DNA of 64,000 nt from Amphiscolops sp. MND2022 (taxonomy: Eukaryota): contig OZ076409.1 of the NCBI GenBank assembly GCA_964187785.1, positions 28,584,001-28,648,000 of the forward strand. Reading direction: 5' to 3'. The notes beneath the pieces were generated by a model. The model had not been told where the DNA came from and searched no databases. It worked only from the letters and a program-made list of their open reading frames with translations. The position numbers were made by a program, and so were the translations under genes. Positions 2,494 to 38,450 of the stretch are shown piece by piece. Each line of letters opens with the position of its first letter. Position 1 is the first letter of the stretch.

Positions 2494-2662
2494 AGTAGTA
2501 TACGAATTCCCGATTCGGACCAGTCAAATATATTTTTTAAAAAAAATGTTGATTATTATTTTTTTAAAAGTCAACGTTTTTTTCACAGCTAACTGTTAAA
2601 AAATAACCAAGGCAAACCATCTAAAAATTAGTTATTTTTCACAACGGAAAAATTAACAAAAT
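2494..2662 (+). repeat. Polinton left terminal inverted repeat
   Basis: Reverse complement of 15995-16242, e.g. aactgttaaaaaataaccaaggcaaaccatctaaaa and cgaattcccgattcggaccagtcaaa. Confidence 0.92.
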
Positions 2663-2682
2663 TGATGAAAAATAACTATTAA

Positions 2683-3078
2683 ATGAATTATTTATCATTC
2701 AAAGAATTTGTTAATAACTATGGATTAAAAAATGAAGCAACTTCCAATGTAGAAATAAAAGAAATCCTAAAACTCATGAACACATCTTGTGGAATATATA
2801 TGAGAGATGATAAGTTTACCACTACCAGTGGTATAGTTAACTTACATCCAACTAAAGGAACACATTGGGTTATGTTTACAAACCAAAACTATTTCGATTC
2901 ATATGGCTGTCCACCACCACTAAATATAACAAAACAAATTAATAATGGTATCTATTCAGAATATCAAATCCAGAAAGACGACAGTTATTGTGCAGCTTAT
3001 TGTTTGTATGTGTTATAACTCACAAATATAATTGGTTTCAAAAATGCAGTTTTAAACTTATATTATCAAACTTTATGA
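2683..3078 (+). pseudogene. Adenain-like (clan CE) maturation cysteine protease (Polinton PRO), with a probable premature stop at 3016-3018
   Basis: GTHWV (His), YFDSYG (Asp), QIQ..DSYCAAYC (Gln, Cys). After the TAA the frame continues LTNIIGFKNAVLNLYYQTL to a TGA at 3078. Confidence 0.85.
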
Positions 3079-3085
3079 ATAATAA

Positions 3086-3226
3086 ATGAAGAAAATTAAT
3101 AATTATTCAGCTCAATTTAAGATTATTCAAAAACCAATGAATACCAATGAGAATCAATTTGATGAGAAAGTAATAGAAAAAAATAATCCAAAAAAAAATT
3201 ATCAAAACAAAACCAAGAATTTATAA
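3086..3226 (+). CDS. Small hypothetical Polinton ORF (46 aa, possibly frameshifted in an A-run)
   Basis: The ATG lies in a TAAATG context like the other genes and the ORF fills the PRO-mCP gap; MKKINNYSAQFKIIQKP... Confidence 0.4.
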   Translation: MKKINNYSAQFKIIQKPMNTNENQFDEKVIEKNNPKKNYQNKTKNL

Positions 3227-3270
3227 ATAAGATATCCGCAAGTGGATTTAAACAATTTTTCTCCTAATAA

Positions 3271-4317
3271 ATGGATCTATCAAATTTTGTAACCTATGAT
3301 AAAAAAGAATCTCTTTTATTGAGTATTGCAAAATCTAATTTGGATATTGTTGAAAATACCTTATGCAAACCACAAGAAACTTTAGAATTTAAAATGAATA
3401 AACAAAAAGAATCTTTTTCATTTGATATTCCACTAGACTTACCTGAACAATGGATGATGGGAGTAACAAGTTTAGAAAATTATAATACAGTTTATAACAT
3501 TGCTGAGAAGAACAATAAATTTAAACTTCTTTATACAGAAAAAATGTTAAAAGAAAATGATGTTGACACTCAATTAATAACAAATGTTGAGTATTTATAT
3601 AAAACCTCTGGTGATATAGAAAAAATTAAAAAACTTATAGTTAATGATAATGCTGAAATTAAGACTATTACTAAAACAGATTATGATTATTTGATGAAAA
3701 TAATTGATCAAATTAATCAATTTACCGAAGGTGCTTTGCACATTAAAGATAAACCAATTGTTATTTCTGGAATTGGATCTGTAACTGATTCCATTGAAAT
3801 AGAACTACCACCAGGAGCATATGAATTAGTTGATATAAATAATACCATCCAGCAAGAACTTATTAAATGTTGTACTTTACCTGGTGGTAGTTCTGACCTT
3901 AAACTCAACATAGAAGCAGATACAATATCAATGAAATCAGTTTTAACAACTGCTAGTGGTATATATTTTAATTCAGAATTAAATAAACTTTTAGGGTTTA
4001 CAAACAAGGAATATCCAGCAGGAACACATATTTCAGAAAAACCAGTTATGATAACAACGACAGACAAAGTTCATCTTAAATGTGATTGTGTAGATGGTTC
4101 AATTGTTAATGGCATACGAGAACAAATTTTATTTTCTTTTAATCTTAGTGCTCCTCCCGGATATAAAATTATAAAAGAACCCAATATTATTTTGTATAAA
4201 AAAATAAACAAAACAAGGTTAGATAGTATTCAATTTTTCCTTGAGGATAACAATGATAACCCAGTTGATTTCAACTCTGAAACATTAACATTTACAAATC
4301 AAATCATCAAGATTTAA
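3271..4317 (+). CDS. Minor capsid (penton, single jelly-roll) protein
   Basis: N-terminal FDIPLDLPEQWMMGVTSL.NYN.VYNI and C-terminal HLKCDCVDGSIVNG...PPGYKI..EP..ILYKKI...LDSI.FFLED....VDFNSE patterns typical of Polinton/PLV pentons. Confidence 0.8.
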   Translation: MDLSNFVTYDKKESLLLSIAKSNLDIVENTLCKPQETLEFKMNKQKESFSFDIPLDLPEQWMMGVTSLENYNTVYNIAEKNNKFKLLYTEKMLKENDVDTQLITNVEYLYKTSGDIEKIKKLIVNDNAEIKTITKTDYDYLMKIIDQINQFTEGALHIKDKPIVISGIGSVTDSIEIELPPGAYELVDINNTIQQELIKCCTLPGGSSDLKLNIEADTISMKSVLTTASGIYFNSELNKLLGFTNKEYPAGTHISEKPVMITTTDKVHLKCDCVDGSIVNGIREQILFSFNLSAPPGYKIIKEPNIILYKKINKTRLDSIQFFLEDNNDNPVDFNSETLTFTNQIIKI

Positions 4318-4329
4318 TCTTAATAAATA

Positions 4330-4744
4330 ATGAGCATTAATCTTAAATAATAATAAATTTAAAAATAATTCATATTGTGTTGGTGGAAAACATTATTCCG
4401 CTACCATAAATATTCGTGGAGATATTACTCAAAATAAAAAAACAGGAGCACCTGTTAAATTATTAAGAGGTACTTGTTCAACTTGCAAAAGAAATAAATC
4501 ACTTATAGTATCTGATCAAACTATACAAGCAGAAGGATTAGGTGACTTTTTCCGAGGTATAGGAAAAGCCGCCAAGAATGTCGGAAAAAAAATTTTAAAC
4601 AATCCTGGAAGAGCATTAGAACTCGCAGCTAATATCGGTACTGCAGCAGCAAGTAAAAATCCCCGAGTGATAGCAGCAACTCCTCCTGATATTATAAAAT
4701 TTGTTCATCAAGGAAAAGGCCTGTACTTGGGTAAAATTCATTGA
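4330..4744 (+). pseudogene. Zn-ribbon plus amphipathic-helix protein (candidate virion core or membrane-lytic protein); start codon out of frame and absent from the ORF track
   Basis: Open frame 4334-4744: NSYCVGGKH...LLRGTCSTCKRNKS...QAEGLGDFFRGIGKAAKNVGKKILNNPGRAL...HQGKGLYLGKIH*. The ATG at 4330 is one frame off, next to a local ttaatctta duplication. Confidence 0.75.
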
Positions 4745-4793
4745 TTTACAGCCGAGCTGTAAATTAAATATTATTTTTTATGAATAATAAATT

Positions 4794-5748
4794 ATGTATT
4801 CAATTCATAATCGAGAGGATTTAGAGAAATTAAAAAAATTGCAAGAAACAAAATCTTCTTTGAAAGCTGAAAGATTAAAAGAGAAACTAGGGAAGCAAGA
4901 TTTTCATTACGATATGGAAGAAGTTTTTGAACCCGTAACAGAAAAACAGAAACAACATTTCTAAACAACAAGAATTTTCCGAAAAACAAATACAAGCACT
5001 ACAAGATTCGACTCAAACTACAACACAAGCAATACAAGACCAAACTAGAGCAATACAAGACTCGAGTAATACTCCTAATAAAAAATTACATAAATCAGTT
5101 AAAGAAGGAATACAAGAATATGATAAAATTACAAATCGTAATAATCAAATTGTTACAGATCTTGTTAACTCAAACCAAGTTGATTCTAGTATCGTTAAGA
5201 CAGTTTCTAATTTGCTTAATGACAACAACAAAAGTCAATTTAGTTTAGAACCCGTGGAAGGAAGTTCCAATTTATTCACAATTAACCCTCATAATCCCCA
5301 ACAAGTACTAATCAAAGGTTCAACGATGATTTTCCCGAATGGTAAGACGTACTATTTAAATGATCCGGATCTTTCATATTTTATAACGAATACACACTTC
5401 GATAATCTATCACAAAATAGCAAAATAATTTACAGTTTTTTAAATGATATGAAATATAATATAAATTATGGAGATAAAAAATCACATAGATATTATTTTA
5501 TTAAAGCTATGTTACAACCACAAATAGGAAGTGGATTAAATTTTGTTTTTCTTCCATCTGATCCAGATGAGCTTGTAGATCAAATAAAACTACTTTATTT
5601 TGAAAAAGTAGGAGGAAATGATAATCCTATGCTTAGTGAACAAATCATAGCAATTGCAGATAAACTTTTACAATACCAATGTATTACAACAAATCAACAT
5701 CAAAACCTAGTAAGCACTTTTACTAAAAAGGATCAGTTTGTGGATTAA
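4794..5748 (+). pseudogene. Polinton protein of unknown function (coiled-coil N-terminus, LPSDPxELxD C-terminus), frameshifted near 4955
   Basis: MYSIHNREDLEKLKKLQE...EEVFEPVTEKQ continues in the +1 frame (SKQQEFSEKQIQALQD...) into track ORF 5212-5748, ending QIGSGLNFVFLPSDPDELVDQIKLL..EK.GGNDN. Confidence 0.7.
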
Positions 5749-6702
5749 ATATCTGGTATTGCAGATTGGATTCATTACATATCATATACTTACTCCCATT
5801 TTTACCTTCTAACCTATTTATTAATAAATAATTATACTCATCCCGCCATGCTTCTCTGCATAAACTTTTGAATTCATCATTGGACATATCAAAACCTGCT
5901 ATGTCTCTATAAATGTGTTCAACATTTTCAATGTTTGTCGAAAAAAAATTATAATATTACTATTGTTTCTAATTGTTCTTTTAGGTAAATCAAAATATGA
6001 CTGTGATAAATAATAAACATCCAGATCATTAGGTCTTCTCCTAGTAAAAAATGGGTCTATTAATTTCTGATTGGAGTCTAACATATCATCAAATACAACA
6101 CAACAATTTTGAATATCTTGAATACTTTTATCACCTAAATCTTCTTCCACTGAAACATCTTCTATTTCAATTTTATTGTATTGTTCCGGACTCCTTGTAA
6201 TAATATGAATTTTCCTTGTATTATCATCCAATCGAATTAACTGTAATTTGTTTAATAACAAATGGGTCTTACCACAAAATGATGGGCCAACTATCAATGT
6301 CCTATTACAATTATTTTCAATTTGATTATTATTATCATCAATTTGATTATTATGATTTTCATTATTATCATCAATTTGATTATTATCAATTTGATTATTA
6401 TCATCATCAATTTGATTTTCATTACCATCATCAATTTGAATATTATTTAAAAAATATACATCTTCTAATAATTTAATACATCTTTTTAAATGTTTTGATA
6501 AATAGATTTTATTTAATTCTTTATTACAGAATTCACATTTTACTTTTTTATTGAAACATTCTATACATGTACTATACAATTTACCATTTCTATATTTGTA
6601 AAAATCTGTTTTCAATATAATACATTCTTTACATCTTTTTTTATTCTCACAATCGAAGCAGACAGATTTTTCATTACTTTTTCCACAAATTAAACACTTC
6701 AT
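5723..6702 (-). pseudogene. A32/FtsK-like packaging ATPase 1 with an N-terminal CxxC-rich region and NQIDD repeats; 1-nt frameshift near 5925
   Basis: Walker A GPSFCGKT, Walker B VVFDDM, degraded Arg-finger motif (RRP for GRH), LSQSYF..PK.TIRNN. After the frameshift it continues VEHIYRDIAGFDMS.DEFK.LC..AW.....L.IN to a TAG at 5723-5725. Confidence 0.85.
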
Positions 6703-6722
6703 TTATTTAGTAAAAAATCACT

Positions 6723-6820
6723 AAATCACTAAGCAAATTCACTAAGAGCACATCTTCTTAAGTGTAGCCTTATTTGCTTAGTGAAAAAAATATGCTCTTA
6801 GTGAATTTACTTAGTGATTT
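6723..6820. other. Intergenic inverted repeat (28-bp arms, 1 mismatch) built from CACTAAG units
   Basis: aaatcactaagcaaattcactaagagca (6723-6750) pairs with tgctcttagtgaatttacttagtgattt (6793-6820); further ACTAAG units extend to ~6840. Confidence 0.85.
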
Positions 6821-6855
6821 TACTAAGAAAATTACTAAGAAATCAGACCCATTTT

Positions 6856-7867
6856 TTAATTACTTTTACTAAACCTAATTGCTTGATCAATTATAATTTC
6901 CTTAAATTCCTCTTTAAGTTGATCTGAAATTAATGGTTGTTGCATGCGTTCAACGTAGTTGTCTATTTTAGATTCATTCACTTTTATTTTATTTTGTTTA
7001 CAATAATATACATAATAATAAGCTACATTAAAAGGTGTTATTTCAATTGTTTGATCTGACATATCTTCTAGGAATATTTTAAGTTTATTAAATTCTTCAC
7101 CTGTAAAGAAATAACTTTCATATTTTACATAATCTTCAGGACTCCATTTATGTTTAGTTGTATCGTAGATTAGTTGGTACTTTTGATTGAGTATTTTATA
7201 CTTTTGTGATCTAGTATCAAATTCATTTACACCAAATTCTAACTGACTACGATATTGTTTCCATTTAAGATCTTCTTTGATTGAATAAGTTTGTATTATG
7301 GTTTCAAAGAAACTATCTGGATTATTTATTGTGATATATAATTTAAAACAATTCTCTCTCACTATTGGGAGAACATCCTTTGCATAGTGAGCAAGGTATA
7401 TAACTTGTAAATTATTGTGTCTACCAAACCGAAATAAGTCTTCTACTTTTGTTTTAAGTTGCTTATAAGCACCCGCATCGTCTAAAATTATCGTTCTATT
7501 CGCAAGTGATTCAATTTCTATTTTTTTCTAACTGCAACAAAGGTATATAATTATCATTAAACTCAGTCTCATCTCTACCGAATACTATAAAACTTGTTTT
7601 AGTTTGATCCAAATAATACCTAAGGAAATTAGTCTTACCTGATCCACTAGTACCATAAATTAACATATGGCAATTTGTATTTGTGTTTGGTGGAGTAAGT
7701 TCTTGTTCTTCTTCTTTGTTAGTTAAATGAGATTTTTTAAATCCCTTGAATTGTTTTAGTTTTTGGTATAATTTTTCGTAATGTCTAGGTCTAATATAAT
7801 ACCAATAAATATATAAAACTGTAATAAAGATTACACATAATAAACCTATATATAATTTTTTATTCAT
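6856..7867 (-). pseudogene. A32/FtsK-like packaging ATPase 2 with an N-terminal transmembrane helix; 1-nt frameshift in a homopolymer at ~7521-7527
   Basis: Joins track ORFs 7511-7867 and 6856-7362: LYIGLLCVIFITVLYIYWYY (TM), HMLIYGTSGSGKT (Walker A), then TIILDDAG (Walker B), LFRFGRHNNLQVIYLAH (Arg finger and sensor) and PIVREN. Confidence 0.85.
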
Positions 7868-7881
7868 TTATTAGGAAATAA

Positions 7882-8739
7882 ATGAATGAAAAGAAAGAAA
7901 TTGTTAAAGAAATATTCTCTCCTGTAATCAAGAAGTTTCAAAGAATTCAAATACAAACTCACTATAAAGATGAGTGTTGGAGTATTGATCTGATAGACAG
8001 GTCTAGCTTAGCAAAATACAACAAAAACTACAAGTTTATTTTTACAATAATTGACAATCATACTAAATATGCATGGGCGATTCCTCTTAAAGATAAATCA
8101 GGAAGAAGTACAACAAATGCATTTAAAAGTCTTATCGAAAAAACAAAAAGAAAACCGGATAAAATATGGTCAGATAGAGGTAAAGAGTTTTATAACAAAA
8201 CATTTTTGGATTTCCTACAAGAACAAAACATTCATATTTATTCAACTAATTCAGATTTAAAAGCTGTTTTTGTTGAACGCTTCAATAGAACATTATTAGA
8301 TCTAATAAAAAAACCAATGTATAATGAAGGTAAAGCTTGTTGGTTGAATCACCTTGATGCTGCTATGGAAAAATGTAATAATCGTGTTCATGGTACAACA
8401 AAAATGACACCATTTGAAATGGTTACCAATACTAATAAAATTATCAATATTAAAATTAATAAAAGTGAAAAAATACCCAAATTTCAAGTGGGAGACTATG
8501 TAAGAGTTCCTGACAAAAGGAACATTTATTCAAAAGGTTATACAACAAATTGGAACAGAGAACTTTTCAAAATACACAAAATTAATCCAACTAACCCAGT
8601 TACGTATGGTTTAGTAGATGAAAACAACGAACAAATAGAAGGAAAATTTTATGAACAAGAACTTTTAAGGAGTGTATTCAATTTTAAATCTAACAACAAA
8701 ACGTTAGAAAGTATGAATATTTTCCATCAAAATGAGTAA
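7882..8739 (+). CDS. Retroviral-like (rve) DDE integrase of Polinton type; no C-terminal chromodomain evident
   Basis: WSIDLID, IDNHTKYAW, IWSDRGKEF, VERFNRTL, PKFQVGDYVR, KGYTTNW, G.FYEQEL. Confidence 0.95.
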   Translation: MNEKKEIVKEIFSPVIKKFQRIQIQTHYKDECWSIDLIDRSSLAKYNKNYKFIFTIIDNHTKYAWAIPLKDKSGRSTTNAFKSLIEKTKRKPDKIWSDRGKEFYNKTFLDFLQEQNIHIYSTNSDLKAVFVERFNRTLLDLIKKPMYNEGKACWLNHLDAAMEKCNNRVHGTTKMTPFEMVTNTNKIINIKINKSEKIPKFQVGDYVRVPDKRNIYSKGYTTNWNRELFKIHKINPTNPVTYGLVDENNEQIEGKFYEQELLRSVFNFKSNNKTLESMNIFHQNE

Positions 8740-8756
8740 ATGTATTTAAATAAATA

Positions 8757-9458
8757 ATGTCAATTCATAAATTTGGTTATAGTGCCGAGAGTCTACAAAA
8801 AGATAAGATTGAGAATTTAGAAAAAAAATTCGAATCACAAACCAAATTGTTTAATATAAAACTTATTAATATTTCTGACAAATTAGAAAACTCTGAAAAC
8901 CTACAAAGTGTACAAGAAATTAATTTTGATGATGGTGAAACCAAGGTAGTAGTCAATGCAAAGTTATTCTTAGACATAAATAAAAATATAGAAGACTTGA
9001 AAATCAACCTGAAATACTTAGAACAAGATGTTAAAAATAAAGTTTTAGAAAAGAAAAAAGAAATAATTTTGGATGCTGCCAAGTTATTGGAAGAACAACA
9101 AACCATTTTACGTAATCATTTTGAGAAAAACCTTATTTTGGAATTGGAAAAATGTAAAAATCAAACTGTCAAAGATGTTATACAACTATTGTACAACAAA
9201 GGATTGTTTGACTCATTTGAAAATAAAGACCAAATCTTTAATGAGTACTTATATTTTAGTGATGAATACTTGTTGGAAAAATACGGAAAAGAAATAAAGA
9301 CATCAGATGGTGTGTATTATTTATCTGATTTAGACTATTCAACGCGAGAAGATATTTTGAAGTGCTTAAAAATAGATGAATACAAAGATATTGTTGACCT
9401 TAAATATAGAATGAAACTAACCGATACTGAGATAACTTTCATACTTTTTGAAGAGTGA
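8757..9458 (+). CDS. Hypothetical Polinton protein (233 aa, coiled-coil-like)
   Basis: Intact ORF between the integrase and the membrane protein; TAAATAATG start context; no recognisable motif. Confidence 0.65.
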   Translation: MSIHKFGYSAESLQKDKIENLEKKFESQTKLFNIKLINISDKLENSENLQSVQEINFDDGETKVVVNAKLFLDINKNIEDLKINLKYLEQDVKNKVLEKKKEIILDAAKLLEEQQTILRNHFEKNLILELEKCKNQTVKDVIQLLYNKGLFDSFENKDQIFNEYLYFSDEYLLEKYGKEIKTSDGVYYLSDLDYSTREDILKCLKIDEYKDIVDLKYRMKLTDTEITFILFEE

Positions 9459-9492
9459 ATACTTGTAAAATTAAGTTTTTATTTAAAATTAA

Positions 9493-10009
9493 ATGAGTGA
9501 AAAATTGTATCCTTGTTTAGGTGAATCAGATAATCTTGATCTTAGATGGAAAGAAATAAATAGTTTTAATAATTCAATTCAAAATATAAAAGATATTCAA
9601 AATTTTTATAATCATGAAGCTAAAAAGTATAAAAAGAAATCTAAAATATATAAAATTATCAACAGTTTAATTCAATCTATTGATGGAGTTTCAGTACTAG
9701 CAGTATCATCAACATGTGTCACGTTGAGTGTCACAGGAGTTGGACTTGTTGTTGTACCTATAGCAAGTGGTATAGGTGCAGGTTTATGTATAATCAGTAA
9801 AATTGCTGGAGAGTACCTGAAAAGAACAACATATTATTAAAAAATATACTCTTGCTGGTAGAACACTACATGATTTCTGTAAACTACATTCAAAATGTTT
9901 AGAAGACAATAAAATTGATCTGAATGAATACAACAAATTAAAACAAACATACGATGTGTATAAAAACAATAAAACTAAACTAAATTCTGAGTTTAATTTT
10001 TTAGGATAA
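9493..10009 (+). pseudogene. Polinton predicted membrane protein (Gly-rich hydrophobic hairpin), frameshifted near 9822
   Basis: LYP...KKYKK...VSVLAVSSTCVTLSVTGVGLVVVPIASGIGAGLCII; continues in another frame as KEQHIIKKYTLA..TL......SKCLEDNKIDLNEY..L...YD.YK to a TAA at 10009. Confidence 0.7.
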
Positions 10010-10119
10010 ATTTATTTAGTAAAAATAATATAAATATAAATTTGAAATCATCATCATGAATATTTATTCTTTTACAAACCGAAGATTTGTAGAAAAAATG
10101 AATATTTTTTTCTATATAA

Positions 10120-11349
10120 ATGGAATTATTTTCTTTGAAAAATAAATATGTTATGGATAAACCTATTCATAAAATTGATTTTATTAAATACTCACCTAGT
10201 AGTTTAGCTACAATCAACAATAATAATTCAAATATTTCCATCATCTTCCCAAGAGAAGATGCATATTTTTGTTTACAAAACTCATACATATCATTAGAAT
10301 TTGAAGTTCTTAAAAATGATGATACAAGATATGCAGATGGTGATCAAATAAGTTTAGTTAATTTTGGACCCGTTGCTTTATTTAGTGAAGCTAAGTTAAC
10401 TACTAGTTCGGGCAAGCATTTAGAAAAAGTTGATAACCTACACCCAATTTCTTTGATGCATAAACTTTTAACATCTAATCAACAAACAAGTCAATTGATG
10501 TACGGATTTGAAGAATCACAAGCAACTAGAAGACAAGAACTAACAACAAACAAAACAGAAAAAGGAACCTTTTTTGTTAGAATTAGGTTGAGTGATATAT
10601 TTGGATTTGCTGATCAAGAAAAAATAACTTATGGATTGGGTTATACTCTTACTTTAAAACGAAATAATAATAATGATCCTATCATCAGGGACAATGGTGT
10701 AGATGCTGCAAAAATAAATATAAAAGACATCTCCTGGTATATTCCACACTATGTTCCTAGCTTAGAAAACCAGCAACTCGTGATGGATCAAATATTAGAC
10801 AAAGATCCAACTGAATTATATTACATGGAACGAGTTGTTTTTAGAAAAGATGTTAACACGAATAATAATTGGACATTTGAATTAGGTAATAGTGGAGAAT
10901 CAACACCAACTTTTGTAATTGTTGCTTTTCAAGCTAGAAATAAAATTGATTCACAAACACATGATAATGCAATATTTGATCGTTTACCTGTTTCAAATGC
11001 TGTTTGTAAAATAGGATCAGAGAAATATCCCGATGATGGAATAGAATGTGATTATGATAGAGACAAATATGACCAAGCATACAGTGAAATTGAAAACTTC
11101 TATTTGTTAAAAAGTGAAACTAACCTACTCAATCCGTTTATTGATTTGCATAAATTCAGGACAAATTATAATTTCTATGTATTTGATTTATCCAAACAAA
11201 AAGACCCCATCGGGAGTCAACCTACTAGATTAGAATTCAAATTTAATGCTGCTATTGATGTAGCAGACTATATAGCTTATGCCCTAGTCCTAACACCTAA
11301 ACTGATAAGTATCAGTAGTGATGGACGAAGGCATTTTGATTTATTATGA
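10120..11349 (+). CDS. Major capsid protein (double jelly-roll)
   Basis: 409 aa with SYISLEF, ALFSEAKL, IRLSDIFGF, ISWYIPHYVPS, PTFVIVAFQ, KYP and FYVFDLS patterns of Polinton DJR MCPs; adjacent to pPolB. Confidence 0.85.
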   Translation: MELFSLKNKYVMDKPIHKIDFIKYSPSSLATINNNNSNISIIFPREDAYFCLQNSYISLEFEVLKNDDTRYADGDQISLVNFGPVALFSEAKLTTSSGKHLEKVDNLHPISLMHKLLTSNQQTSQLMYGFEESQATRRQELTTNKTEKGTFFVRIRLSDIFGFADQEKITYGLGYTLTLKRNNNNDPIIRDNGVDAAKINIKDISWYIPHYVPSLENQQLVMDQILDKDPTELYYMERVVFRKDVNTNNNWTFELGNSGESTPTFVIVAFQARNKIDSQTHDNAIFDRLPVSNAVCKIGSEKYPDDGIECDYDRDKYDQAYSEIENFYLLKSETNLLNPFIDLHKFRTNYNFYVFDLSKQKDPIGSQPTRLEFKFNAAIDVADYIAYALVLTPKLISISSDGRRHFDLL

Positions 11350-11447
11350 ATAAATATAATTTAAATATATAATAATACAGCTTTGCTGATATGATAAATA
11401 AATTTATTTTTATAAATAATAATAATTATAAAATAAGATATTTATTT

Positions 11448-14400
11448 TTATAAAACATGTGCTCGATCACTTATCAACTTCACAAGTTGTTGAAGGGTGA
11501 GTGCTTGTTTCCAATACCAAACACTCCAATATATTTCTTCATCTGTTTTCTTGCTACCGTCAACATTTATAGTTAAATCTTTATAATACAAACCAAATAA
11601 TTTCAAACAATAGATACAAGGGCAATCACTTTTTTGTGTGTGTTTATCCCATGGTAAACTTTGTATTGGATTTATACACAAACGTTTATCGTCAAAAGGA
11701 TTCAAACACAACTTAGGTAGTTTTTCAACTGTGAGGTTGTGTAAATTAGATCTAATTGATATATTTGTAGAACTTGATGTTTCTGAATTAAACAATGAAT
11801 TTTGATATTCTTCACATTTAGGAGCTTTTTGTATTCCTCTTTGTTTCGCTTTTTGAGTGATACCGGAGGCGCATTGCGTACCATTCGGATTATTATAACT
11901 AAAAGAATATGACTTTGATCGCAATGCTGTGAAGGTATCTAACACCAAAACTGGACTTGTTTCAATTTTCATTTTCCCTATGACTTTTTTGTTAATAGGA
12001 TCATATAATTCATCACTTGGGTCTAATTCACTGAAATCAAATTCATCTTGGTTTTCTTGTAAAAAGTTTATTAGTTCTTGGTGGTTTGTATCAAAACTCA
12101 GAATAAAACTATCAGTGTCCATGTAGTGTAGTTGTATGGATTGTTTCCAATATGGTTGTAATTTGTTATAATAAAATTCATACATTAACAACTTGCTCAG
12201 TTCTAGTACTGTAAAACCTAAATAAATTGGTTTATCAAAGACTGTTTTTTCTTTATCAAACTTGTACACGCTAAATTTAGAATAATGATCCATGATTCCT
12301 TTGAAACTTAACTTGGATTGTCTTTTTATTATTTGATCTATTTGAGAATGATCAATGATATCTAGATTGGTTCTATCTCTTACATTTTCCATCGTCTTGC
12401 CAAAGAAAGCGTTGTTCATTAATTTATAAAGATCCTTTTCAAAGTTTGTTTTCGCTACTGTGCGTTTCTGAGTATTATGATCGATATATTTACCTAACCA
12501 TGGACTTTGTTTAAACTTATAGATAGTATGTATCTTCGTTACTTTCATCCCTTGGTTAAGATAAAACTTAAACATCCTATAATGTATCATATATTTCGAT
12601 TTATTGGTTACATCACACATAAGTTTTGATGTTGGTTTGTAATTAGGTTGATTTATATTATTCATATAACCTGAGAATAAGTTTGGATCTGCTTTTGTTT
12701 GATATGGACAAAAAGGAAATTTTTTTGTTTTTTCTTTAATTTCAGCTGGATATTCTAAGTTACATTCTATAAAGTATCCAAATTCATTGTCATCTGGTGT
12801 ATTGAAAATGTCCTCTTTAATTTCATTCATCAGTACAGAATCATATTCACAACAGAGCTTTATCTTTTTAAAGTCTCCAGTAGGAAGGTATTGACTCATT
12901 GCCAATCCATATAGACTATTTGCATCGATATATAAGATTTGTTTATTTTCATCAGATTGCACATGACGATCTCCCATAACACTTGAAATTCCTCCACGTA
13001 TATTGTTTTCTAAAAGTAATAATAATTCTTTACATTTTATATAATCTAATTTTATATTAGTCAACTTTAATCCTGCTTTCCATGTATAACCAGGTAGAGA
13101 GTAACTATACAAAGGATTAATTTTATATTCTCGTGTAGAACTTTCCACAAAGTTTTCAAATACATCAGCTAATTGTAGAACGTCCATTTTCAAATATAAC
13201 ATTGTTAATTCTCTTCCATTTTTAATTTTAGTTTTATCAATTAATTCTTGGGTTCTTTTTATATCATCATCTGATGGATAAGATTGTGTTAATGTTGACC
13301 AATAATCTTCTTTGGTTAGATTTAATGGTTCCTGAAAGTTATCAAGATTTAAGTATTCATATGGATAAGCTAATTTCTTTTTAAATAAATCATCACTCAT
13401 TCTTTCCAATTTCATGATAGGAAAATTGTCTAAACTCTTAACTAATTTATCTAAACTGGAAGAAAGAAATCGGTATGAATCTAAGAATCTCAAACAACCT
13501 ACTTGTACACTAACATAATTTTCCAGTGATTTTGGAATTATCGTTGGATTATAATTTTGATTGTATGCTTCGGTTAAAAGTTCTTCAAATATAAGATGAC
13601 AATCATACCCAGAAAAGATATGGAAAAATATAGGAACAAAACTTGATGACTTTTGTTTACAATTTATGTTACATATATTATGAGCTGCTCCTCTGTATTT
13701 TCCTGTTAGATGATCATGATCTCTAACTTTTTCACCTTCGAGTGGATTTTCACAAAGCCAACACTCTTCTGCAAGTTGAAATTGTACTTCTTCTCCTTGA
13801 CTCATTTCTAATTCTAAATTTGTTTTAAAATATTTTGATGCAATTTTTTCTAAAGTTAACATTCTATTCACAAACCACGTGGTACAATCTATTCCAAAGT
13901 ATGAATAGTAATAATTTCCGAATGGTGAAATTACATAATATCCTACTGCAATTGGAATTTGTTTGAATAACACGTTGGGGGTATTTTGAGGTTGATTGAT
14001 ACATTCAAAATCTGCATATACTCTTATTGGTACAGGAACTTTCATATAATAATCTTCGAACTTTAACTGATCCTTCCAACTGAATGTGATATTAGTTGGT
14101 TGTTGATTTATACATCTTTCCATATGATCAATAAGAACTGGTTGTGAACTAAATGCTGTTAAACATCTTCTACATACATGTTTCATATGTGAATCTTTAT
14201 TTATTAGACAATGCAACCTTGTTATTAGACAATAGTGATTTTGATATAGTAATAAATCTATTTGTGGTTGTAAGTAATTTTTATTAACGTGGATTGGTGT
14301 TAAAACATTTCCAGTGAGTTCAAATACATTTATAGTTAAATTAATTAGGTTTTCGAACTTGGGAATATCTTTAACTTTCATAGGGAACTCTAATCCTTTC

Positions 14401-15233
14401 AGGTTGAGTTTATTTAAATGAATAATATATTTTGATATTCTATCTTTATGATTCTCAACTGGATATAACTGGGCTAAAATACACCATAAAAAACAATATT
14501 GATCATTATTCTTTATATTTATGATTGATTTATTATCCTTATATTTTCCTGGTAATTCAATATATGATGAAGCTTGAATATCATTAACTTTATATATTTC
14601 TAAAAAAACTTCTTCTATTTCTTGAAACACAAAACCTGATCCTTCTAATTGTTCATCATCTAATTTCTGCATTAATGTGTTATGAGTATCTTGTTGTGTA
14701 CCGAAGGTGCTTTGCATGTGATTATACGTTAGATCTGATTTTATCCATCTTTTAAATACTTCTTCTTCTCCATTGACTATTTTTGAAAATTTAGCTAGAT
14801 AACTCAATTGATATTTATATCGGGGAAAATAATTTTTACTAAGTAATTCATTTATATGATCTTCGAGATTACTAGTTGGATTTATTTTAAGTTTAATGTA
14901 TGTATTTTCATTCATAATTTTTTCTACTCCATTACCGAAATTTTGCATGTTTTCCCGTTGACGGTTTTGTAAATGAATTTCACTTTGGAAATGTCTTGTT
15001 GTATCAGATATATATTTACTACAATCTTCACACCAAACACGTCGTTGTTCGGTTTTATTTTTATGTTCATCTGAACTTAAATGAGAAATTTTATCTGAGA
15101 TAGGCATATATAAATTACATTTTTCACAATAATATTGATCTAATTTTTCAAGATGTTTTACTGTTTTTAAATGATCAGACTTGAAAACTTTTTTATAATT
15201 TAAATTACAAATACTACAATTCTCCATTTCCAT
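11448..15233 (-). CDS. Protein-primed family B DNA polymerase with N-terminal C2H2 zinc fingers and an inserted EndoVII/HNH-like module
   Basis: Exonuclease motifs YADFE, H.FSGYD, FLDS, YPYEY, YLKMDV; polymerase motifs YIDANSLYG, KLMNNAFFGK, YMDTDS; C..C...VRDHDHLTGKYRGAAH..CN insert; three CxxC...H.....H fingers at the N-terminus. Confidence 0.96.
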   Translation of the reverse strand: MEMENCSICNLNYKKVFKSDHLKTVKHLEKLDQYYCEKCNLYMPISDKISHLSSDEHKNKTEQRRVWCEDCSKYISDTTRHFQSEIHLQNRQRENMQNFGNGVEKIMNENTYIKLKINPTSNLEDHINELLSKNYFPRYKYQLSYLAKFSKIVNGEEEVFKRWIKSDLTYNHMQSTFGTQQDTHNTLMQKLDDEQLEGSGFVFQEIEEVFLEIYKVNDIQASSYIELPGKYKDNKSIINIKNNDQYCFLWCILAQLYPVENHKDRISKYIIHLNKLNLKGLEFPMKVKDIPKFENLINLTINVFELTGNVLTPIHVNKNYLQPQIDLLLYQNHYCLITRLHCLINKDSHMKHVCRRCLTAFSSQPVLIDHMERCINQQPTNITFSWKDQLKFEDYYMKVPVPIRVYADFECINQPQNTPNVLFKQIPIAVGYYVISPFGNYYYSYFGIDCTTWFVNRMLTLEKIASKYFKTNLELEMSQGEEVQFQLAEECWLCENPLEGEKVRDHDHLTGKYRGAAHNICNINCKQKSSSFVPIFFHIFSGYDCHLIFEELLTEAYNQNYNPTIIPKSLENYVSVQVGCLRFLDSYRFLSSSLDKLVKSLDNFPIMKLERMSDDLFKKKLAYPYEYLNLDNFQEPLNLTKEDYWSTLTQSYPSDDDIKRTQELIDKTKIKNGRELTMLYLKMDVLQLADVFENFVESSTREYKINPLYSYSLPGYTWKAGLKLTNIKLDYIKCKELLLLLENNIRGGISSVMGDRHVQSDENKQILYIDANSLYGLAMSQYLPTGDFKKIKLCCEYDSVLMNEIKEDIFNTPDDNEFGYFIECNLEYPAEIKEKTKKFPFCPYQTKADPNLFSGYMNNINQPNYKPTSKLMCDVTNKSKYMIHYRMFKFYLNQGMKVTKIHTIYKFKQSPWLGKYIDHNTQKRTVAKTNFEKDLYKLMNNAFFGKTMENVRDRTNLDIIDHSQIDQIIKRQSKLSFKGIMDHYSKFSVYKFDKEKTVFDKPIYLGFTVLELSKLLMYEFYYNKLQPYWKQSIQLHYMDTDSFILSFDTNHQELINFLQENQDEFDFSELDPSDELYDPINKKVIGKMKIETSPVLVLDTFTALRSKSYSFSYNNPNGTQCASGITQKAKQRGIQKAPKCEEYQNSLFNSETSSSTNISIRSNLHNLTVEKLPKLCLNPFDDKRLCINPIQSLPWDKHTQKSDCPCIYCLKLFGLYYKDLTINVDGSKKTDEEIYWSVWYWKQALTLQQLVKLISDRAHVL

Positions 15234-15994
15234 TTATTAAAGAAAAAATAGTTTAATTAAAAATTTTTCAATAATAATTTTTCAAAAAATTGGTGAAAAA
15301 ATAATTTAATTTTGTGGGTTCAATAAAATTTTCTACTTGTAAAATGTGTGTCTTGTTATTGTCTATAACTTTGTTCTCCTGTATCATTGCGCTGCGATAA
15401 ATCATTTTCGAGAAAATTGAGAAAAACCCAATTTTTACACCTGTTTTTATAGGTGGTAATTAGTGGGTTGATTTTAGAGAAAACATTCAGTGACAAAATT
15501 TGTGTAACTTTTAATTATCTACAACTTTTATTTCTGTGAATTTTGTCTAAAATTATTTCCCGTTGAGATATTAGGCAAACTATCTTTTCCCATGTATTAA
15601 GATTAGGTATAATTCACAAGAACTAGAACAACTTCATGGTTGCAAGAAGGAGCCAAAAAAATGTCAGCGATAAAAGTTTTTGCCAAAAAGTTTGTCACTG
15701 AAAAAATTTTTTGCCAAAATTTTTGCCAGGCTGGCACGAATTCTGGCAAATTTGCTTTGATGTTTCTTTCATGTTTCTCGAGTGTGAAATGTCAATTTGT
15801 CTGCATTGCACACTTCACTGCAAAAATGAATTGAATTGCACATGTTACACTTTTAAACCAACGTTGCTGTAATTCATTCCAAAAAATTTTTGCTTCACAA
15901 ATTTTCTCTATTACCATCCACGGCAACATAGAGGTTAGTGATTTTTTGCTTCAAGACAAAGTTTTCCACTGGAAAAATTTGTTCATTGATTTTT

Positions 15995-16242
15995 ATTTTG
16001 GTAATTTTTCAGTTGTGAAAAATAACTAATTTTAGATGGTTTGCCTTGGTTATTTTTTAACAGTTAGTTGTGAAAAAAACGTTGATTTTTTTTAAAAAAA
16101 AATTAATTAACATTTGTTTTAAAAAAATTTTTGACTGGTCCGAATTCCCGATTCGTTTGGTATTCATAATTTTTAAAAAAATAATCAACATTTTTTTTAA
16201 AAAAAAAAAATTTGACTGGTCCGAATCGGGAATTCGTATACT
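15995..16242 (-). repeat. Polinton right TIR with an internal partial duplication
   Basis: Reverse complement of the left TIR; the block ...ttgactggtccgaat occurs twice (16131 and 16212). Confidence 0.92.
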
Positions 16243-17182
16243 CACAGACAGTTTTTGTTTTCGATCTTGCTAGGTCCCCTTAAGAGCGTTTAGAGCCGGT
16301 GCGACAATTTTTTGAAAACAAATTTTCCAAAATTCATTTCTTGGCAAGTTTGGCTTTTTAAACCTTTTCCGTTAAGGATAAGCGTTTTTCGAGCCTAGAA
16401 GCCTATTGTTTTTTTCGCTCACTGCGACTTTCAAAAACTGGGTCATGAAAACGTCAAAGTGGGCCCCACTTTGCTTCAATTTGTTTTCAGATCTGAAGAG
16501 TTATTCCAATACTTACTCTACTCGAATCTGACGAGAAGTTTTCAATGTGGCATCCTCGCATGCTTTTTAGGTTTTTGATGAACATAAAAATCACTGAAAG
16601 GACGCATAAAAAACTTTTGAAAAACCTCCATTCAACTTGCAAAATTCTCTAAACAGATCCATGCACATTTGAGAAAAAAGATCCCTGCAGTCTACAACAT
16701 GTATGGAAAAAATCCTAGCAATTTTAACGAAAAAGTTTTTTTAAAGTTCGAGAAAAGGGCTAAAAAGGCCGTCTTTAGACCTTTCAAAATTTATTTCTCA
16801 CGTGATCTGTCATGTCAAAGGAACGCATGAATTGCCCTTGGTCTTAAATTACATAAAAACACTTATCCGTCACTAAATGAAAACAACGCAAAAAAATCAT
16901 CGAAAATACAAAAATTGTTTGGGAACAGTTCCGGGCTCAACAAAAATGAAATGTTGAGATCTCAATGAGTTTTAAACATACTGACAGCTTGTTCCTGACA
17001 GCCGACTTTCTTCTTCGAATTCAAATTTCGAAAAAAAATAAATGTTTTATCATAAAAAATGACGAAAATTAATAATTCGCAAGCAATTCGAACAGAAATG
17101 CTCACTGAAGCCTATAATAATTTTGTCATCAAAATATCAGCTTTTGTTATGGATTGTTGATATTCCGCTCTCAAAGTGGTTC

Positions 17183-23698: not shown

Positions 23699-26600
23699 TT
23701 CCACCGACAGCAATTGACGGTTGAGAATTTTAAATCCAATGGTAGTACAATAAAGATAGGATAAATATATAAATGTCTGGACACAAATTGTACAGGTTAG
23801 GAAATTGTAATAATGGTATAAACACTACATCGTTTCAAGCAGTTTTTAAAAAGTTCAGTTTGTTTCCTTCACTTTTGAGCCTTTGTCTCCTTCTCTACTC
23901 CACAAATATGCACGGGCAGCCCATATCGGTCGGGTGCTTTTCGATTCCTACAGTTTCTTGTAGCTTGTTTTTCTCCAGCGGGTTTTTCGTTTTCCACTTC
24001 GTCTTGCTCAAGGTTGGCGAATATTGCGCCCTTTCCTCCCTCTGCTTTCTCTCGATCTCTTTGAGTGCATAATGTTTGGCTCGTTGCGGTGGTTTTTGCT
24101 TTCTGTTTTTCCCTCTCTGGAGGTTTTTTCGATCGCAACTTCTCTTTTCGACAAAAGTGTTTCTGTCTCCTTGTCCTCTGAGGTAAATGTCAGCGCGTGT
24201 TCATCCGTTGATCTTTCTCTTTCGGCGCTTGAATAGGCCGACCAACTTCCCTTTTCTTTGCCTCTTCTTGACAAAGATGGTGCTGTCATCATCTCTTGGG
24301 AACTCCTCCAGCTTGTCGAGGTCCACTGATCTGTCGAAATCTAAATCATTCAGTTTTTTATATAACTTCATAAATATGGATGTTTTAGTATTTGATTTTT
24401 GGCTGTGTGTCTCTCGAACGGCATTTTTCCATTGCTTACTCTTAGCGCACTTAATGACTGGTAGAACAATTTGTTCTGTCTTTCAGCTAAGAGTTCCGGA
24501 TTGCCTCTTAGCCTGTCATTAACCGTCCTTATCAGCCTTTCCTCTTTTCCATTTCCTACATGACGGATTTCAAACTCCTCTCTAAGTGCTTTAAATTCGC
24601 TTTCCATAAAAACTGATGCCTGATCCGTTCTTATTATCTGGATAATTCCATTATCGCAAATGTATTATCGTAAGAACTTTTCTTACCCTTATATCGGTAC
24701 TTTTCACAAATTTTAGTGTGGGGTACGCCGAAAACTTATCAATGGCTACCAGTATGTACTTTTTGTTTTCGGGTGCCCCAGCAAAAGGTCCCATAAAATC
24801 TATGGCTATTTCTGAATTTGTTTTTTTGGTTTTCTGATTTATCCAAATTGTTTTTGGGTTTTTAATGTTTTAAAGTTCCTACTTACGTTTTAGCAGTTTT
24901 TACACGTTTTCGCACAAGCCACAATTTGTCTGTTGATTTGTGGCTACAAAAACTTGTCGACGAAACCCAGAAAGACGTCCCGGCCGGCGTGTCCACAGTG
25001 GAAATTATTCAGGACCACTTGCTTCATATCCGACATAATAAATTTATATTTTTGAAGTGAGGTAATCCACGATATAGCCTTACGTTCGCGACTAATTTCA
25101 AGACGGCTCATTTTGGAGTGTTTACTTTCACAATCAATGCGTTCCCCACGCTTACTGCTTTCTCTCGTGCGTCTAGCTTGCTGCAATTATGTTGGTCGGT
25201 TAAACACTTTGTTTAATTTCTGTTTGGTGTATAGCTACATGTAGCAAATTACATCTTCGTTTGAATTGACTACAAACCAGCTTTCCCAGAGTTCTTGTGC
25301 GCTTTTTGACAATTCGCACTCATTGTAGTCACTAGCGTGCCGGGATAAACAGTCTGCAAATCCCTTTGTCCGGCTCGGTTGCTGAACCACTTCCATGTCA
25401 AATGCTAAACTCCTATCAAGTCACCTAGTGAGCCTACTGGAATATGTTTTCTTTCCGTGGTTACTTTTTATTGCGGTTTCTAAGGCCTTAGGGTCCAATA
25501 CCACTTCGAACTTTACCCCAGAAATGTAATTTCTGAAATGTTCGACTTCCAAACTATCGCGAGTACTTCCAGTTCATTCGTGGAATATTTTACTTTGTAA
25601 TATGTTAAATATCTTGACGCGCACGATACCGGCTTTTAATCTCTGTTCTCGTTTTTCTGCATTGCGCCCAGTCTTTCTTGACTGGCGTGGCAGACGATCA
25701 GCAATTTGTTTGTATGGTAAAATTGCGATTGTTTGATAATTTCTTGGACGTTTTTCTGCACTTGTTCGAAACCTAAGTCGTGTTTTTCCTTACAATCACA
25801 TTGTCTTCCTTTCTTAAGGTCCCTAAAGTGTTCATTTTTTGCGCTAGTCCCGGTATTAATTTTTTAAATTGATTTACTGCCCCGAAGTACGATCTTAGGT
25901 CTTTCAGGTTTTTGGGTTTCATTTGCTCAGATATTCCTTGATGTTTTTCATTTTGTGGCTTTATCCCTTTGTTCGAAATCCTGTACCTGAGCCAATCTTT
26001 TTCATTTTAGCTATTTGGCATTTTTCTTCCAATAGTTGTAGCTTTCTACTATCTAATTTTTGGAAAACTTCCCTAACCTTCGCTTCGCGTTCTTCTTTGG
26101 TACCCTTGGTTACTATTAAAATGTCATCTATAAAAAAACGTTCTGCATGTTAATTAAAGTATCTTTCATTATTCTCCGGAATTCAGTGGGCATAGCTGTG
26201 AGCCCGAAAACTCCGGTTTCAAAACAGTAAATGCCGCTCGCTTTTCCGCCTATTATCGCAAATTTTCAATGCTTAGCTAATTCTGGGTTTAAAAGAGTTT
26301 GTCCAAAGGCAAATTTCAAGTCAACCGAGGTGAACTACACCTCTGCTTCTCCTTCCTGTGTAAATATTTCTGTCAAAGTGCTCAGTAAATCATCTATTTT
26401 CGACATTTAATATTTGTCTTTCTTTATGTTTTCGTTCATTACTCTCGCGTCAAATGCTATTTTTATACTTTTATCCCGCCTCACCGTAATGGCCAACGGT
26501 TGTAAAAAAACGTCCTCTTTTATTTCGTTCACTTTTTCTACGTGGCCCATTCAGAATAAATTTTGAACTCTTTTTCTACTGAAATTTGGAACTGCAGTGG

Positions 26601-27997
26601 TATACTACGCCCCTTTTGTTGCTTGGGTGCGCAACTCCCTTTAAATTGTGCGTTTGTTTCGTGCCCTTCAAGGCATCCGTTTCTAGAAAAAAAGTTTTCC
26701 TTAAATTCGGTGAACAATTTGTTGGGCGGTTTGTTTACAAGATTAAATTCGCACTTACCACCTTCCGTCTTTACCTTGATCCCCAAACCTCGCTGCCTTC
26801 CTATCACTTTTCGAGACTTTTTTGGCTATCAGCGCTCGGACTTTATCCTACTTTCTCGCTCCGAATCGACTTGCACGGTCATAGCTCCGAAGAAATCGAT
26901 TTTGTTGTTGCCGACATCGATATACTTCTCGTTCTTTTTGAGTTGTTGAAGTTTATAAGCCTTTCCGAACACCTTCTGAATATGAGTTTTCGTGAATATA
27001 GTAACTGGTGATCCGGTGTCTATAAGGGCTTGTAATGGCCCTTTTAGGACGAATGGTTTGTCTGCACCCTCTTCCATTTTGTCTATAAGCATAACTTCGA
27101 CTTCTTCCCCCGATTCCTCATCAGAACTCCTCCAGGGGCTCTTTGGGTGAACCACGTATACATTCTTTCGAGTGTTTGTCTTTTTTCTGTTTTGTTTCTC
27201 GCTGTCTCGTTCTGCACATGCGGGCATAGTGTCCGTTTTTTCCACAGTTCCGGCATTCAACATTGCTGGCCTTGCAAATCTTTTGATGCCCCATTGTAAA
27301 CGGCTTTTCTCCACATTTGTAGCTTTCGCTTTTTTTCTCTACCGCGAATACCGGCTCTTCTTTGAGATTTGTCGTTTTGACACAATATGGTTTCTTCTGT
27401 TGGGCCCTTTGCTCGAAACAATAGCAAACTTCAAGGCTTCCTCAGGATTATCTTTGGATTCCATGAACAATCTATCTCGGACTTGGGTGTTCTTCATAAT
27501 GGGTACGAAAATATCGTATAATAATCCTGTGGTCTGCGTGCCAAAGTCACAATTTGCAGTCAATTCATTTAGGGCGTGCCAAAATTGCTCGAGGCTTTCG
27601 TCATCCCTTTGTTTCCTGTTTAGGAATTTGTGACCATTCATGAGCCTGTTCCTTTTCTTCTGGATAGCGTCGTTGCATTCCTTGAGCAAGTCTTTCAGAT
27701 TGGTAGCGTTTATATCCATATCTGGCTTCCGGTCCAGTATTGTTTTTCGTGCTGCTTCTCTGCGGGCAATATTCAAGAAACTGACCGCTTTTTTCTGGGC
27801 TATGGGTTCTTCTGCACCGCCAATCAGTTCTTTTCTTCTAGGAGTTCCTGATTCGTCTCTTGTCAGTTCTTCTAATGATATTGAGGATTTTGCCATAAGT
27901 GTCGCCTGAAATAATTTGATCCATCTACTCCACTCTTCTTGGGTTTCTATTGAAGGATCGTGCCAAAAGACAAGAATTCCTGATATGGGTTGAGTTC

Positions 27998-28169
27998 AGC
28001 TCCGCAGCGCCATGAAGCTAACGGCTAAGTATTAAAAGAGAGTGTTTTGTGTGACTGAATGTTAATTTCTCAGACCGTATTGGTGGTCTAGCATCGTTTT
28101 CTCAGACGCTTTACTTTTGTTGGCAGGTACTTGTCAAAGTGACAACTGCTCTTTTAGCGATCTACCACA
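27998..28169 (-). repeat. 5' LTR (28013-28169) plus primer-binding site TGGCGCTGCGGAGC (tRNA-Ser-like)
   Basis: On the minus strand the LTR ends in ...TTCA, immediately followed by TGGCGCTG, complementary to a ...CAGCG-CCA tRNA 3' end. Confidence 0.8.
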
Positions 28170-37457: not shown

Positions 37458-38450
37458 TTACCTACAGTTTTCTTTCAACTTATCAAAAACTAAATTCAAA
37501 AGTGAGGCATGAAAGTGTTTGAGGCCCCTGGAAGAGATCATGCCGGAGTATCCAGGGAAGCTGTTGAGGTCTATGATGAAGGCTTTTCCTGATTGGTCGA
37601 TGATCAAGTCCATGCTGAACAGACTGAGCCGGAACTTGGAGCGGATGACAGCCACCAGTCTGCTGAGCGACTGGGCGTCTATTGTCTCCCTCAGCCTCTG
37701 CAGCTGTTCCCCCGAGAGCTCTTCCCGCATCTTGGCTACCTGAGGGGTGTAGAAGTGCACCGGCCGTAGGTCATCCATCTGACCCTCACCTTGACCCTCG
37801 CTCTGACCTTGACCCCTGGTCACGACCTTGTCAATGCTGGGTCTTGTGGCCACGTGCACCTCGTCACCCAGAGCGGACACCTTGAGCACTGTCTGGTGCT
37901 TGACCATCGGCTGCAGCAACAACCCGTCCAGTTGTCCCTGTTGCTCCAGCACTAGCAGGTGCTCTGGTTTGAACACGACCAGCATGTCGTGGTCCCTGTC
38001 GACCCCAGTGAGTAGGTTGGGCTTGCAGATGAGGGGGAACCCGATGTCCCGCCTTGCTAGCTCTCCCTGCAGCTGGGCCACCGAGCTGATGCAGAACGAG
38101 GGCATGATCTTCACTCCTGCCGCCGCCAACAACTCCAACTCCACTTCATACAGCATGTCAAATGTGCACTTCCGGTTGTAAAGCACCTCAGAATTGGCAA
38201 CATGATCAATCTGGATAATATTGGGCACGGAGTGGAGCTGTTCAAAAATAGCTTCTTGTTCTTCGCTGTGGATCTTCTTACCTTTGACAAAAACTACGTC
38301 GCAGTTTTGCAAGTCCCCAACAGTCTCGATCTTTACTATAACAATGTTGTGAGTTGAAAGCGCAAAAGAGGCCAAAGCATCCAGAGATAGTTTTTCCCAT
38401 TTTCTCTCCTCGATCCAGAAACCAACTTTTCTGGCTTCGAGCTCGACCAT
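37458..38450 (-). CDS. ITPK1: Inositol-tetrakisphosphate 1-kinase (ATP-grasp), intronless
   Basis: VGFWIEERKWEKL, FPLICKP, HDMLVVF, Q.MV.H..VLKV..LG, RPSI, LSLFSMDLII, IIDLNSFPGY. Confidence 0.88.
   Translation of the reverse strand: MVELEARKVGFWIEERKWEKLSLDALASFALSTHNIVIVKIETVGDLQNCDVVFVKGKKIHSEEQEAIFEQLHSVPNIIQIDHVANSEVLYNRKCTFDMLYEVELELLAAAGVKIMPSFCISSVAQLQGELARRDIGFPLICKPNLLTGVDRDHDMLVVFKPEHLLVLEQQGQLDGLLLQPMVKHQTVLKVSALGDEVHVATRPSIDKVVTRGQGQSEGQGEGQMDDLRPVHFYTPQVAKMREELSGEQLQRLRETIDAQSLSRLVAVIRSKFRLSLFSMDLIIDQSGKAFIIDLNSFPGYSGMISSRGLKHFHASLLNLVFDKLKENCR

Follow-up and report, generated by a model that had tools for sequence, protein, structure and literature searches.

Two divergent A32-type ATPases, one with a predicted membrane anchor, lie in tandem in a Polinton clade of Amphiscolops sp.

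Animal Polintons have been described with one packaging ATPase per element (PMC8502044, PMC10748475, PMC3671162, PMC11161782, 10.64898/2026.06.19.733378; here and below, statements on the literature refer to the available parts of the sources cited). Why, then, does a Polinton/Maverick element in the genome of Amphiscolops sp. MND2022 encode two? The element lies in a 64,000-nucleotide stretch of contig OZ076409.1 (assembly GCA_964187785.1, positions 28,584,001 to 28,648,000), hereafter the window. A first interpretation made from the window's letters alone (the sequence-only reading) proposed that two dissimilar ATPases appear once two frame breaks are repaired, and that they form either a heteromeric motor or a division of labour. 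We refer to them as the TM-ATPase (transmembrane) and the ZF-ATPase (zinc finger). Their genes and principal motifs are:

6856..7867, minus strand: TM-ATPase gene, A32-like, with an N-terminal predicted membrane anchor; the frame changes at about 7510-7530 in the window copy
7793..7849, minus strand: predicted transmembrane helix of the TM-ATPase, residues about 7-25, followed by basic residues (from hydropathy and a helical model)
7631..7654, minus strand: Walker A motif of the TM-ATPase, GTSGSGKT
5723..6702, minus strand: ZF-ATPase gene, with a Cys-rich N-terminus, an N/D/Q linker and an A32-like core; the frame changes at about 5900-5955 in the window copy
6478..6696, minus strand: Cys-x-x-Cys array ending in a C2HC-like unit, predicted zinc fingers
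6265..6288, minus strand: Walker A motif of the ZF-ATPase, GPSFCGKT

Translation of the minus strand recovers the motifs that the sequence-only reading had named: a hydrophobic N-terminal helix, GTSGSGKT, IILDD and GRH in the TM gene, and a Cys-x-x-Cys array, NQIDD repeats, GPSFCGKT and VVFDD in the ZF gene. The window element is a decayed copy in which each ATPase gene is broken once, by mutation or assembly error, and the arginine-finger motif of its ZF gene has decayed (about 6030-6050), a detail beyond the sequence-only reading. Analyses beyond the window copy used natural open frames from other copies. The host assembly (G000, 1.07 Gb) yielded 1587 candidates in a DNA search, and all 40 that were scored span both genes at 86-100% identity. 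In other genomic copies the helix and the ATPase occupy a single natural open frame of about 336 codons. The anchor thus belongs to the ATPase, as first proposed, and a separate open reading frame (ORF) for the helix is ruled out.

Full-length open TM frames occur at 21 of 30 near loci and at 14 of 30 loci recovered with a diverged TM query, which is 63-74% identical to the near TM protein (35/60 overall). The corresponding counts for the ZF gene are 12 and 7 (19/60). Both frames are open at 8/30 near loci, one of which passed the cut-off with a ZF frame lacking its first ~20 residues, and at 6/30 diverged loci. The two proteins share 26% identity over 101 residues (E 2e-4), and the proposal of two real, dissimilar ATPases behind the frame breaks therefore holds. 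ZF proteins are 316-369 aa long, and their NQIDD repeat is a variable low-complexity linker.

The two genes are consistently found together. Both are present at 30/30 near loci, with one ZF match covering 195 of 317 residues, and a ZF-ATPase match lies directly downstream at 30/30 loci of the diverged TM query, one of them partial. In the reverse test, a TM gene was located upstream at 20/20 positions sampled from 150 ZF-core matches. The pair is thus present at 80/80 clade loci (30 near, 30 diverged TM and 20 ZF-core) and is fixed in this Polinton clade. A first look at the genome gave 2187 TM candidates and 2771 ZF-core candidates, figures that are not copy numbers. Five clade elements read outward all have the polymerase, the capsid gene, the hairpin gene at 9493 and the protease and minor-capsid candidates described below. 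The outcome in which one ATPase is absent or always broken elsewhere did not occur. The sequence-only reading had treated routine dual ATPases in the clade as a mark against its proposal; they are indeed routine here, and we take this to argue for function.

Selection was assessed between subfamilies with the ratio of nonsynonymous to synonymous substitution (dN/dS; Nei-Gojobori, ratio of means), as the sequence-only reading had suggested. The ratio is 0.20 for the whole TM gene and 0.16 for its core, 0.30 and 0.25 for the ZF gene and its core, and 0.25 for the integrase, all of them rough values from open frames only, with non-independent pairs and a dS of 0.7-1.3 that is near saturation. Both ATPase cores are under purifying selection.

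Other A32-bearing elements of the same genome provide the comparison. A Pfam A32 scan of the host assembly identified at least four further element types (L061-L090, L095-L114), with open frames of about 245, 249, 258 and 267 codons. Ten such loci, most of them sister Polintons, each have one ATPase within 10 kb per side, and a TM profile matched only that single ATPase gene at each. This set is uneven: six loci have capsid and integrase (one also polymerase), one has capsid only, and three have only an integrase and a weak polymerase match, all called by comparison with the window's proteins. Sister elements with a capsid protein 42-43% identical to that of the window carry a single soluble ATPase that is nearer the ZF core. 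The ZF core is 37% identical to a sister's sole ATPase over 113 aa (E 4e-21), and the TM protein is 31% identical to the same ATPase over 94 aa (E 1e-7). An LPK-T-R-N motif and a C-terminal Pro...Phe tail are common to the ZF-ATPase and the sole ATPases. Since sister elements carry a single ATPase, the two-ATPase clade stays unusual.

The TM protein matches Pfam Pox_A32 at 31.6 bits (cut-off 22.8). Its scores for FtsK_SpoIIIE (15.3 against 24) and TrwB (16.1 against 20.5) lie below the cut-offs and come from the Walker A region only, so it is not a member of the FtsK or TrwB families. Its structure model, with a predicted local distance difference test (pLDDT) score of 80 from a deeper alignment (64 in an earlier model), is closest in the PDB to the STIV2 packaging NTPase B204 (E 2.6e-7) and in BFVD to an A32-like ATPase (E 5e-10). 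When the TM profile was searched against PDB sequences, the matches did not go beyond the level of Walker A. Against 1.84 billion representatives the profile produced 291 matches at E <=0.001; many among the 150 listed are fragments, and longer relatives are 24-52% identical. Walker A, DD, RH and a sensor His are present in 23/23 family members examined. In the motif-set definition for FtsK-HerA that we adopted (PMC11703096), the sensor position is polar, mostly Gln. A His there as a sign of a dead enzyme was rejected, because the position is defined as polar (PMC11703096) and His also occurs in the sole ATPases of two sister Polinton types.

The predicted membrane helix is a property of the family. 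Hydropathy of at least 1.9 before Walker A was recorded in 102/109 near and 18/19 far TM relatives, and in 0/115 ZF proteins. The helix is located 60-90 residues before Walker A and, in 73 of the 102 near relatives, begins at least 30 residues in, a position more in keeping with an anchor than with a cleaved signal. Basic residues come after the helix in 100/102. The protein also has a C-terminal helical extension of ~100 residues that is absent from sister ATPases. The TM protein is a distinct family with a conserved hydrophobic helix. The family likely extends to other hosts, because for one distant relative (P0490) none of the 117 matches scored in G000 exceeds 58%. Other relatives come from JGI, ENA and Logan assemblies, and contigs with distant relatives include lengths of 7.7 and 28 kb. 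Scans of IMG/VR found no relative, and two IMG/VR loci were dropped as Walker A look-alikes.

In the ZF-ATPase, Walker A, RH and a Gln sensor are kept in 19/19 open frames, and at least four CxxC units occur in 99 of 113 relatives (120 given). Its nearest Atlas clusters carry Pox_A32 at 0.94, and the sister ATPase 37% identical to its core passes the Pfam A32 cut-off. Atlas clusters combining Pox_A32 with zf-C2H2 or zf-met exist, some from eukaryote (mollusc) records, so the fusion of zinc finger and A32 alone is not new. Each protein of the pair has a full set of its own, with Walker A, Walker B, an arginine finger and a polar sensor; neither therefore needs the other to complete its active site.

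In a tree of 35 cores, for which long branches were flagged and which has no named A32 outgroup, a branch with 100/100 support separates the 22 TM-family rows from all others, and the TM copies of G000 are nested among outside relatives. That branch, together with the low identity between the two cores (26% over 101 residues), excludes a recent tandem duplication. The pair may have arisen by an old duplication or by acquisition.

Two distant TM loci (L093 and L094) were found in a metagenome scan. At both, a Cys-rich gene without an ATPase domain adjoins the TM gene. On L094 it lies directly downstream, the arrangement of the window, and on L093 it lies upstream. Pairwise comparison of these neighbours with the ZF N-terminus gave E values of 6e-4 and 1e-4. 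A ZF profile scored them at 3.8 and 9.9 bits, and the best of 200 shuffles of each reached -19.3 and -11.9; the same profile gave 1.6 bits on the window polymerase, which has zinc-finger-like motifs. The resemblance is suggestive, and with two cases it could be a generic Cys-rich likeness. No capsid, polymerase or integrase gene was found on these contigs, which are only 1.3 and 3.3 kb long. An ORF beside the zinc-finger gene of L093 (1-282, minus strand) has a GD-LSG-L...NKQYVD stretch that we take to be like viral fibre repeats, a weak viral hint.

With moderate confidence, we hypothesize that the ZF-ATPase is the packaging motor and that the TM-ATPase works apart from it, tethered to a membrane, as a DNA pump or an assembly anchor. 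The ZF-ATPase would drive genome packaging, its zinc fingers binding the genome or its ends. The TM helix could serve as an uncleaved signal anchor that keeps the ATPase facing the cytosol or nucleoplasm. Each protein would form its own ring, and the TM ring may bring the genome or a nascent particle to the endoplasmic reticulum or nuclear membrane, for assembly or exit, much as anchored FtsK and filamentous-phage gp1 handle their DNA. These two are the membrane-anchored members of the superfamily in PMC11703096. Of the options raised by the sequence-only reading, a division of labour is better supported than a heteromeric motor, and it stays a conditional proposal.

Several observations weigh against this assignment of roles. 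Polinton virions have not been observed (PMC10748475, 10.64898/2026.06.19.733378). The ZF core groups with three sole ATPases at weak support (89/69), and an approximately unbiased (AU) test does not reject a clade of TM and ZF (p 0.306), so that either of the two could be the resident gene. Pfam Pox_A32 misses whole ZF proteins (2/2), while the TM protein matches. The positive-inside bias is absent in far TM relatives (6 positive and 8 negative of 18), and the dN/dS values carry the limits given above.

One alternative is a single heteromeric ring, or a stacked double ring, in which TM subunits tether the complex to the membrane and ZF subunits select the genome. The invariant tandem order and co-occurrence would suit such an assembly, and the zinc-finger gene resembling the ZF N-terminus beside distant TM relatives, on 2/2 contigs, hints at a physical partnership. 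However, both motif sets are complete, so that complementation is unneeded, the cores are only 26% alike over the 101 aa compared, and close relatives of the ZF core act as sole ATPases. We regard the heteromer as unlikely.

Alternatively, true packaging could fall to the TM-ATPase, in a particle that contains an internal membrane, with the ZF-ATPase in an accessory role. The TM core is the more constrained of the two (0.16 against 0.25), the TM protein holds the Pfam A32 match and folds like packaging NTPases, and A32-type motors serve membrane-containing viruses (PMC11703096). This arrangement seems quite improbable, given the single soluble ATPase, nearer the ZF core, of the sister elements with 42-43% identical capsids, and given that the A32 and PRD1 motors have no transmembrane segment in the comparison of PMC11703096.

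We consider it similarly improbable that the TM-ATPase is an acquired accessory that does not move DNA and acts instead in membrane remodelling, host modulation or exclusion of competing elements. Its deep separate family and its C-terminal extension would be consistent with such a role, as would the several membrane-active accessory genes of adintoviruses (PMC8502044, section 3.2) and the lack of capsid, polymerase and integrase on the two short distant contigs. Nevertheless, the catalytic motifs of a DNA pump are all kept at 24-52% identity, and the TM family repeatedly adjoins a putative DNA-binding zinc-finger gene. Finally, one of the two genes might be a duplicate in decay, or might only seem to exist because frameshifts were read through. 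This would account for both genes being broken in the window copy, but it is refuted by the open frames elsewhere (35/60 TM, 19/60 ZF), by dN/dS values far under 1 and by full-length relatives at a distance.

The remaining features of the element are:

2494..16242, unstranded: whole Polinton/Maverick element, 13.7 kb, AT-rich, with terminal inverted repeats and a 6-bp target duplication
2488-2493 and 16243-16248: target duplication CACAGA, 6 bp, flanking both element ends
2494..2662, plus strand: left terminal inverted repeat, which begins AGTAGT
15995..16242, minus strand: right terminal inverted repeat
2683..3018, plus strand: candidate maturation protease, a short ORF with no protease family in Pfam
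3271..4317, plus strand: likely minor capsid protein, whose homologue adjoins the major capsid protein gene in sister elements; no Pfam match
6723..6820, unstranded: long inverted repeat, ACTAAG/CTTAGT-rich, between the ATPase genes, ending ~20 bases before the ZF start codon (z -6.8)
7882..8739, plus strand: RVE integrase (PF00665, 47.1 bits, cut-off 32.6)
8757..9458, plus strand: conserved ORF with no assigned function
9493..9840, plus strand: hydrophobic-hairpin ORF, 115 aa here and 181-223 residues in other copies
10120..11349, plus strand: double jelly-roll capsid protein (PF21738, 76.6 bits, cut-off 27)
11448..15233, minus strand: putative family B DNA polymerase, a 1261-aa ORF with the motifs YIDANSLYG and YMDTDS

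Polinton ends are expected to have AGT-repeat terminal inverted repeats and a 6-bp target duplication, and this pattern is found at 2494..16242. Given these ends, the RVE integrase, the jelly-roll capsid and the polymerase-motif ORF, the element is a Polinton/Maverick. The right terminal repeat contains a partial internal duplicate of its own outer segment (16130-16165 and 16210-16242), and the two ends differ, with a single ACT at the right terminus and the AGTAGT start on the left. We take YIDANSLYG and YMDTDS to be family B polymerase motifs; a Pfam scan of the 1261-aa ORF gave no PolB match. The polymerase expected in a Polinton is a protein-primed enzyme of family B. Residues 488-523 of this ORF (13665-13770, minus strand) resemble Endonuclease VII (Endonuclease_7) at 18.5 bits, below the cut-off. 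The HW/FDS motifs at 2683..3018 are presumed to be a maturation protease signature, and both this ORF and the minor-capsid candidate are kept in sister elements.

The hairpin gene at 9493 had been linked to membrane-associated assembly in the sequence-only reading. It is conserved in 5/5 clade elements at 38-94% identity (including L123, L125 and L129), and nothing ties it to the TM-ATPase. It may resemble the conserved 'Cupiennin'/SLATT-like adintovirus accessory gene. Accessory genes that act on membranes have been reported from adintoviruses before (PMC8502044, section 3.2). The inverted repeat between the ATPase genes folds at -29 to -65 kcal/mol in 14/14 copies, against -7 to -24 for mononucleotide shuffles, and is possibly a promoter, a binding array or a packaging signal. 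In a diverged subfamily (L121, L123, L127, L129) the polymerase and capsid genes are inverted in order and orientation relative to the window subfamily, and the integrase-TM-ZF block is the same.

Elsewhere in the window, a 331-codon frame at 37458-38453 (minus strand) encodes an inositol 1,3,4-trisphosphate 5/6-kinase domain (73.7 bits) and is a host gene. The region at 24000-28000 (minus strand) has a strong skew (AT skew -0.28) and broken ORFs, and 27339-27995, which has no Pfam match, is a putative retroelement gag fragment.

The element shares its terminal inverted repeats, 6-bp duplication, putative family B polymerase, RVE integrase, double jelly-roll capsid and A32/FtsK ATPase with animal Polintons/Mavericks (adintoviruses; Polintoviricetes). 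It differs from them in that one packaging ATPase has been described there, whereas the present clade encodes a pair, of which one member has a predicted membrane anchor. With the packaging ATPases of the A32/FtsK-HerA type (vaccinia A32, STIV B204, PRD1 P9 and those of virophages) the TM family has in common Walker A and B, the arginine finger, the polar sensor and the fold; it adds an N-terminal hydrophobic helix, the C-terminal helical extension and the sensor His (23/23). TrwB/VirD4 coupling proteins are membrane-anchored pumps of the FtsK-HerA type. Bacterial FtsK and filamentous-phage gp1 (PMC11703096) likewise join a membrane anchor to a DNA-pump ATPase core. Compared with FtsK, gp1 and TrwB, the protein described here has a single predicted N-terminal helix and a short A32-type core and belongs to a eukaryotic double-stranded DNA element.

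In a Foldseek list, Medusavirus stheno T3 and Gaeavirus each have two entries labelled A32 or packaging ATPase, and Klosneuvirus KNV1 has one packaging ATPase and one P-loop NTPase. The genomes of these giant viruses are large and the labels are annotation-only, whereas here two ATPases take ~2 kb of a 13.7-kb element. The literature search, which also covered the available text of 10.1101/2023.10.06.561300 and PMC8575486, found no Polinton with two ATPases or with a TM-anchored A32; Repbase entries and subscription papers lay outside it, and the gene maps of PMC8502044 are figures that could show exceptions.

This work defines a previously unnamed TM-A32 family. It also indicates that studies treating A32 as a single-copy marker would, in such elements, combine two paralogues of deep divergence, of which Pfam finds only the TM one here. 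A broader scenario is possible, though doubtful: a module of a membrane-anchored A32-type pump and a zinc-finger DNA adaptor may circulate among small eukaryotic DNA viruses, and in this clade the adaptor may have become joined to the packaging ATPase already resident, so that two motors form a relay linking genome packaging to a host membrane. If so, the relay would be a eukaryotic-virus counterpart of a conjugative coupling protein, and assembly or nuclear exit of the Polintons in this clade would involve a membrane step. That a high-copy clade retains, under selection, a DNA pump with a predicted membrane anchor points to such a step, and the localisation of the TM protein offers a handle on it.

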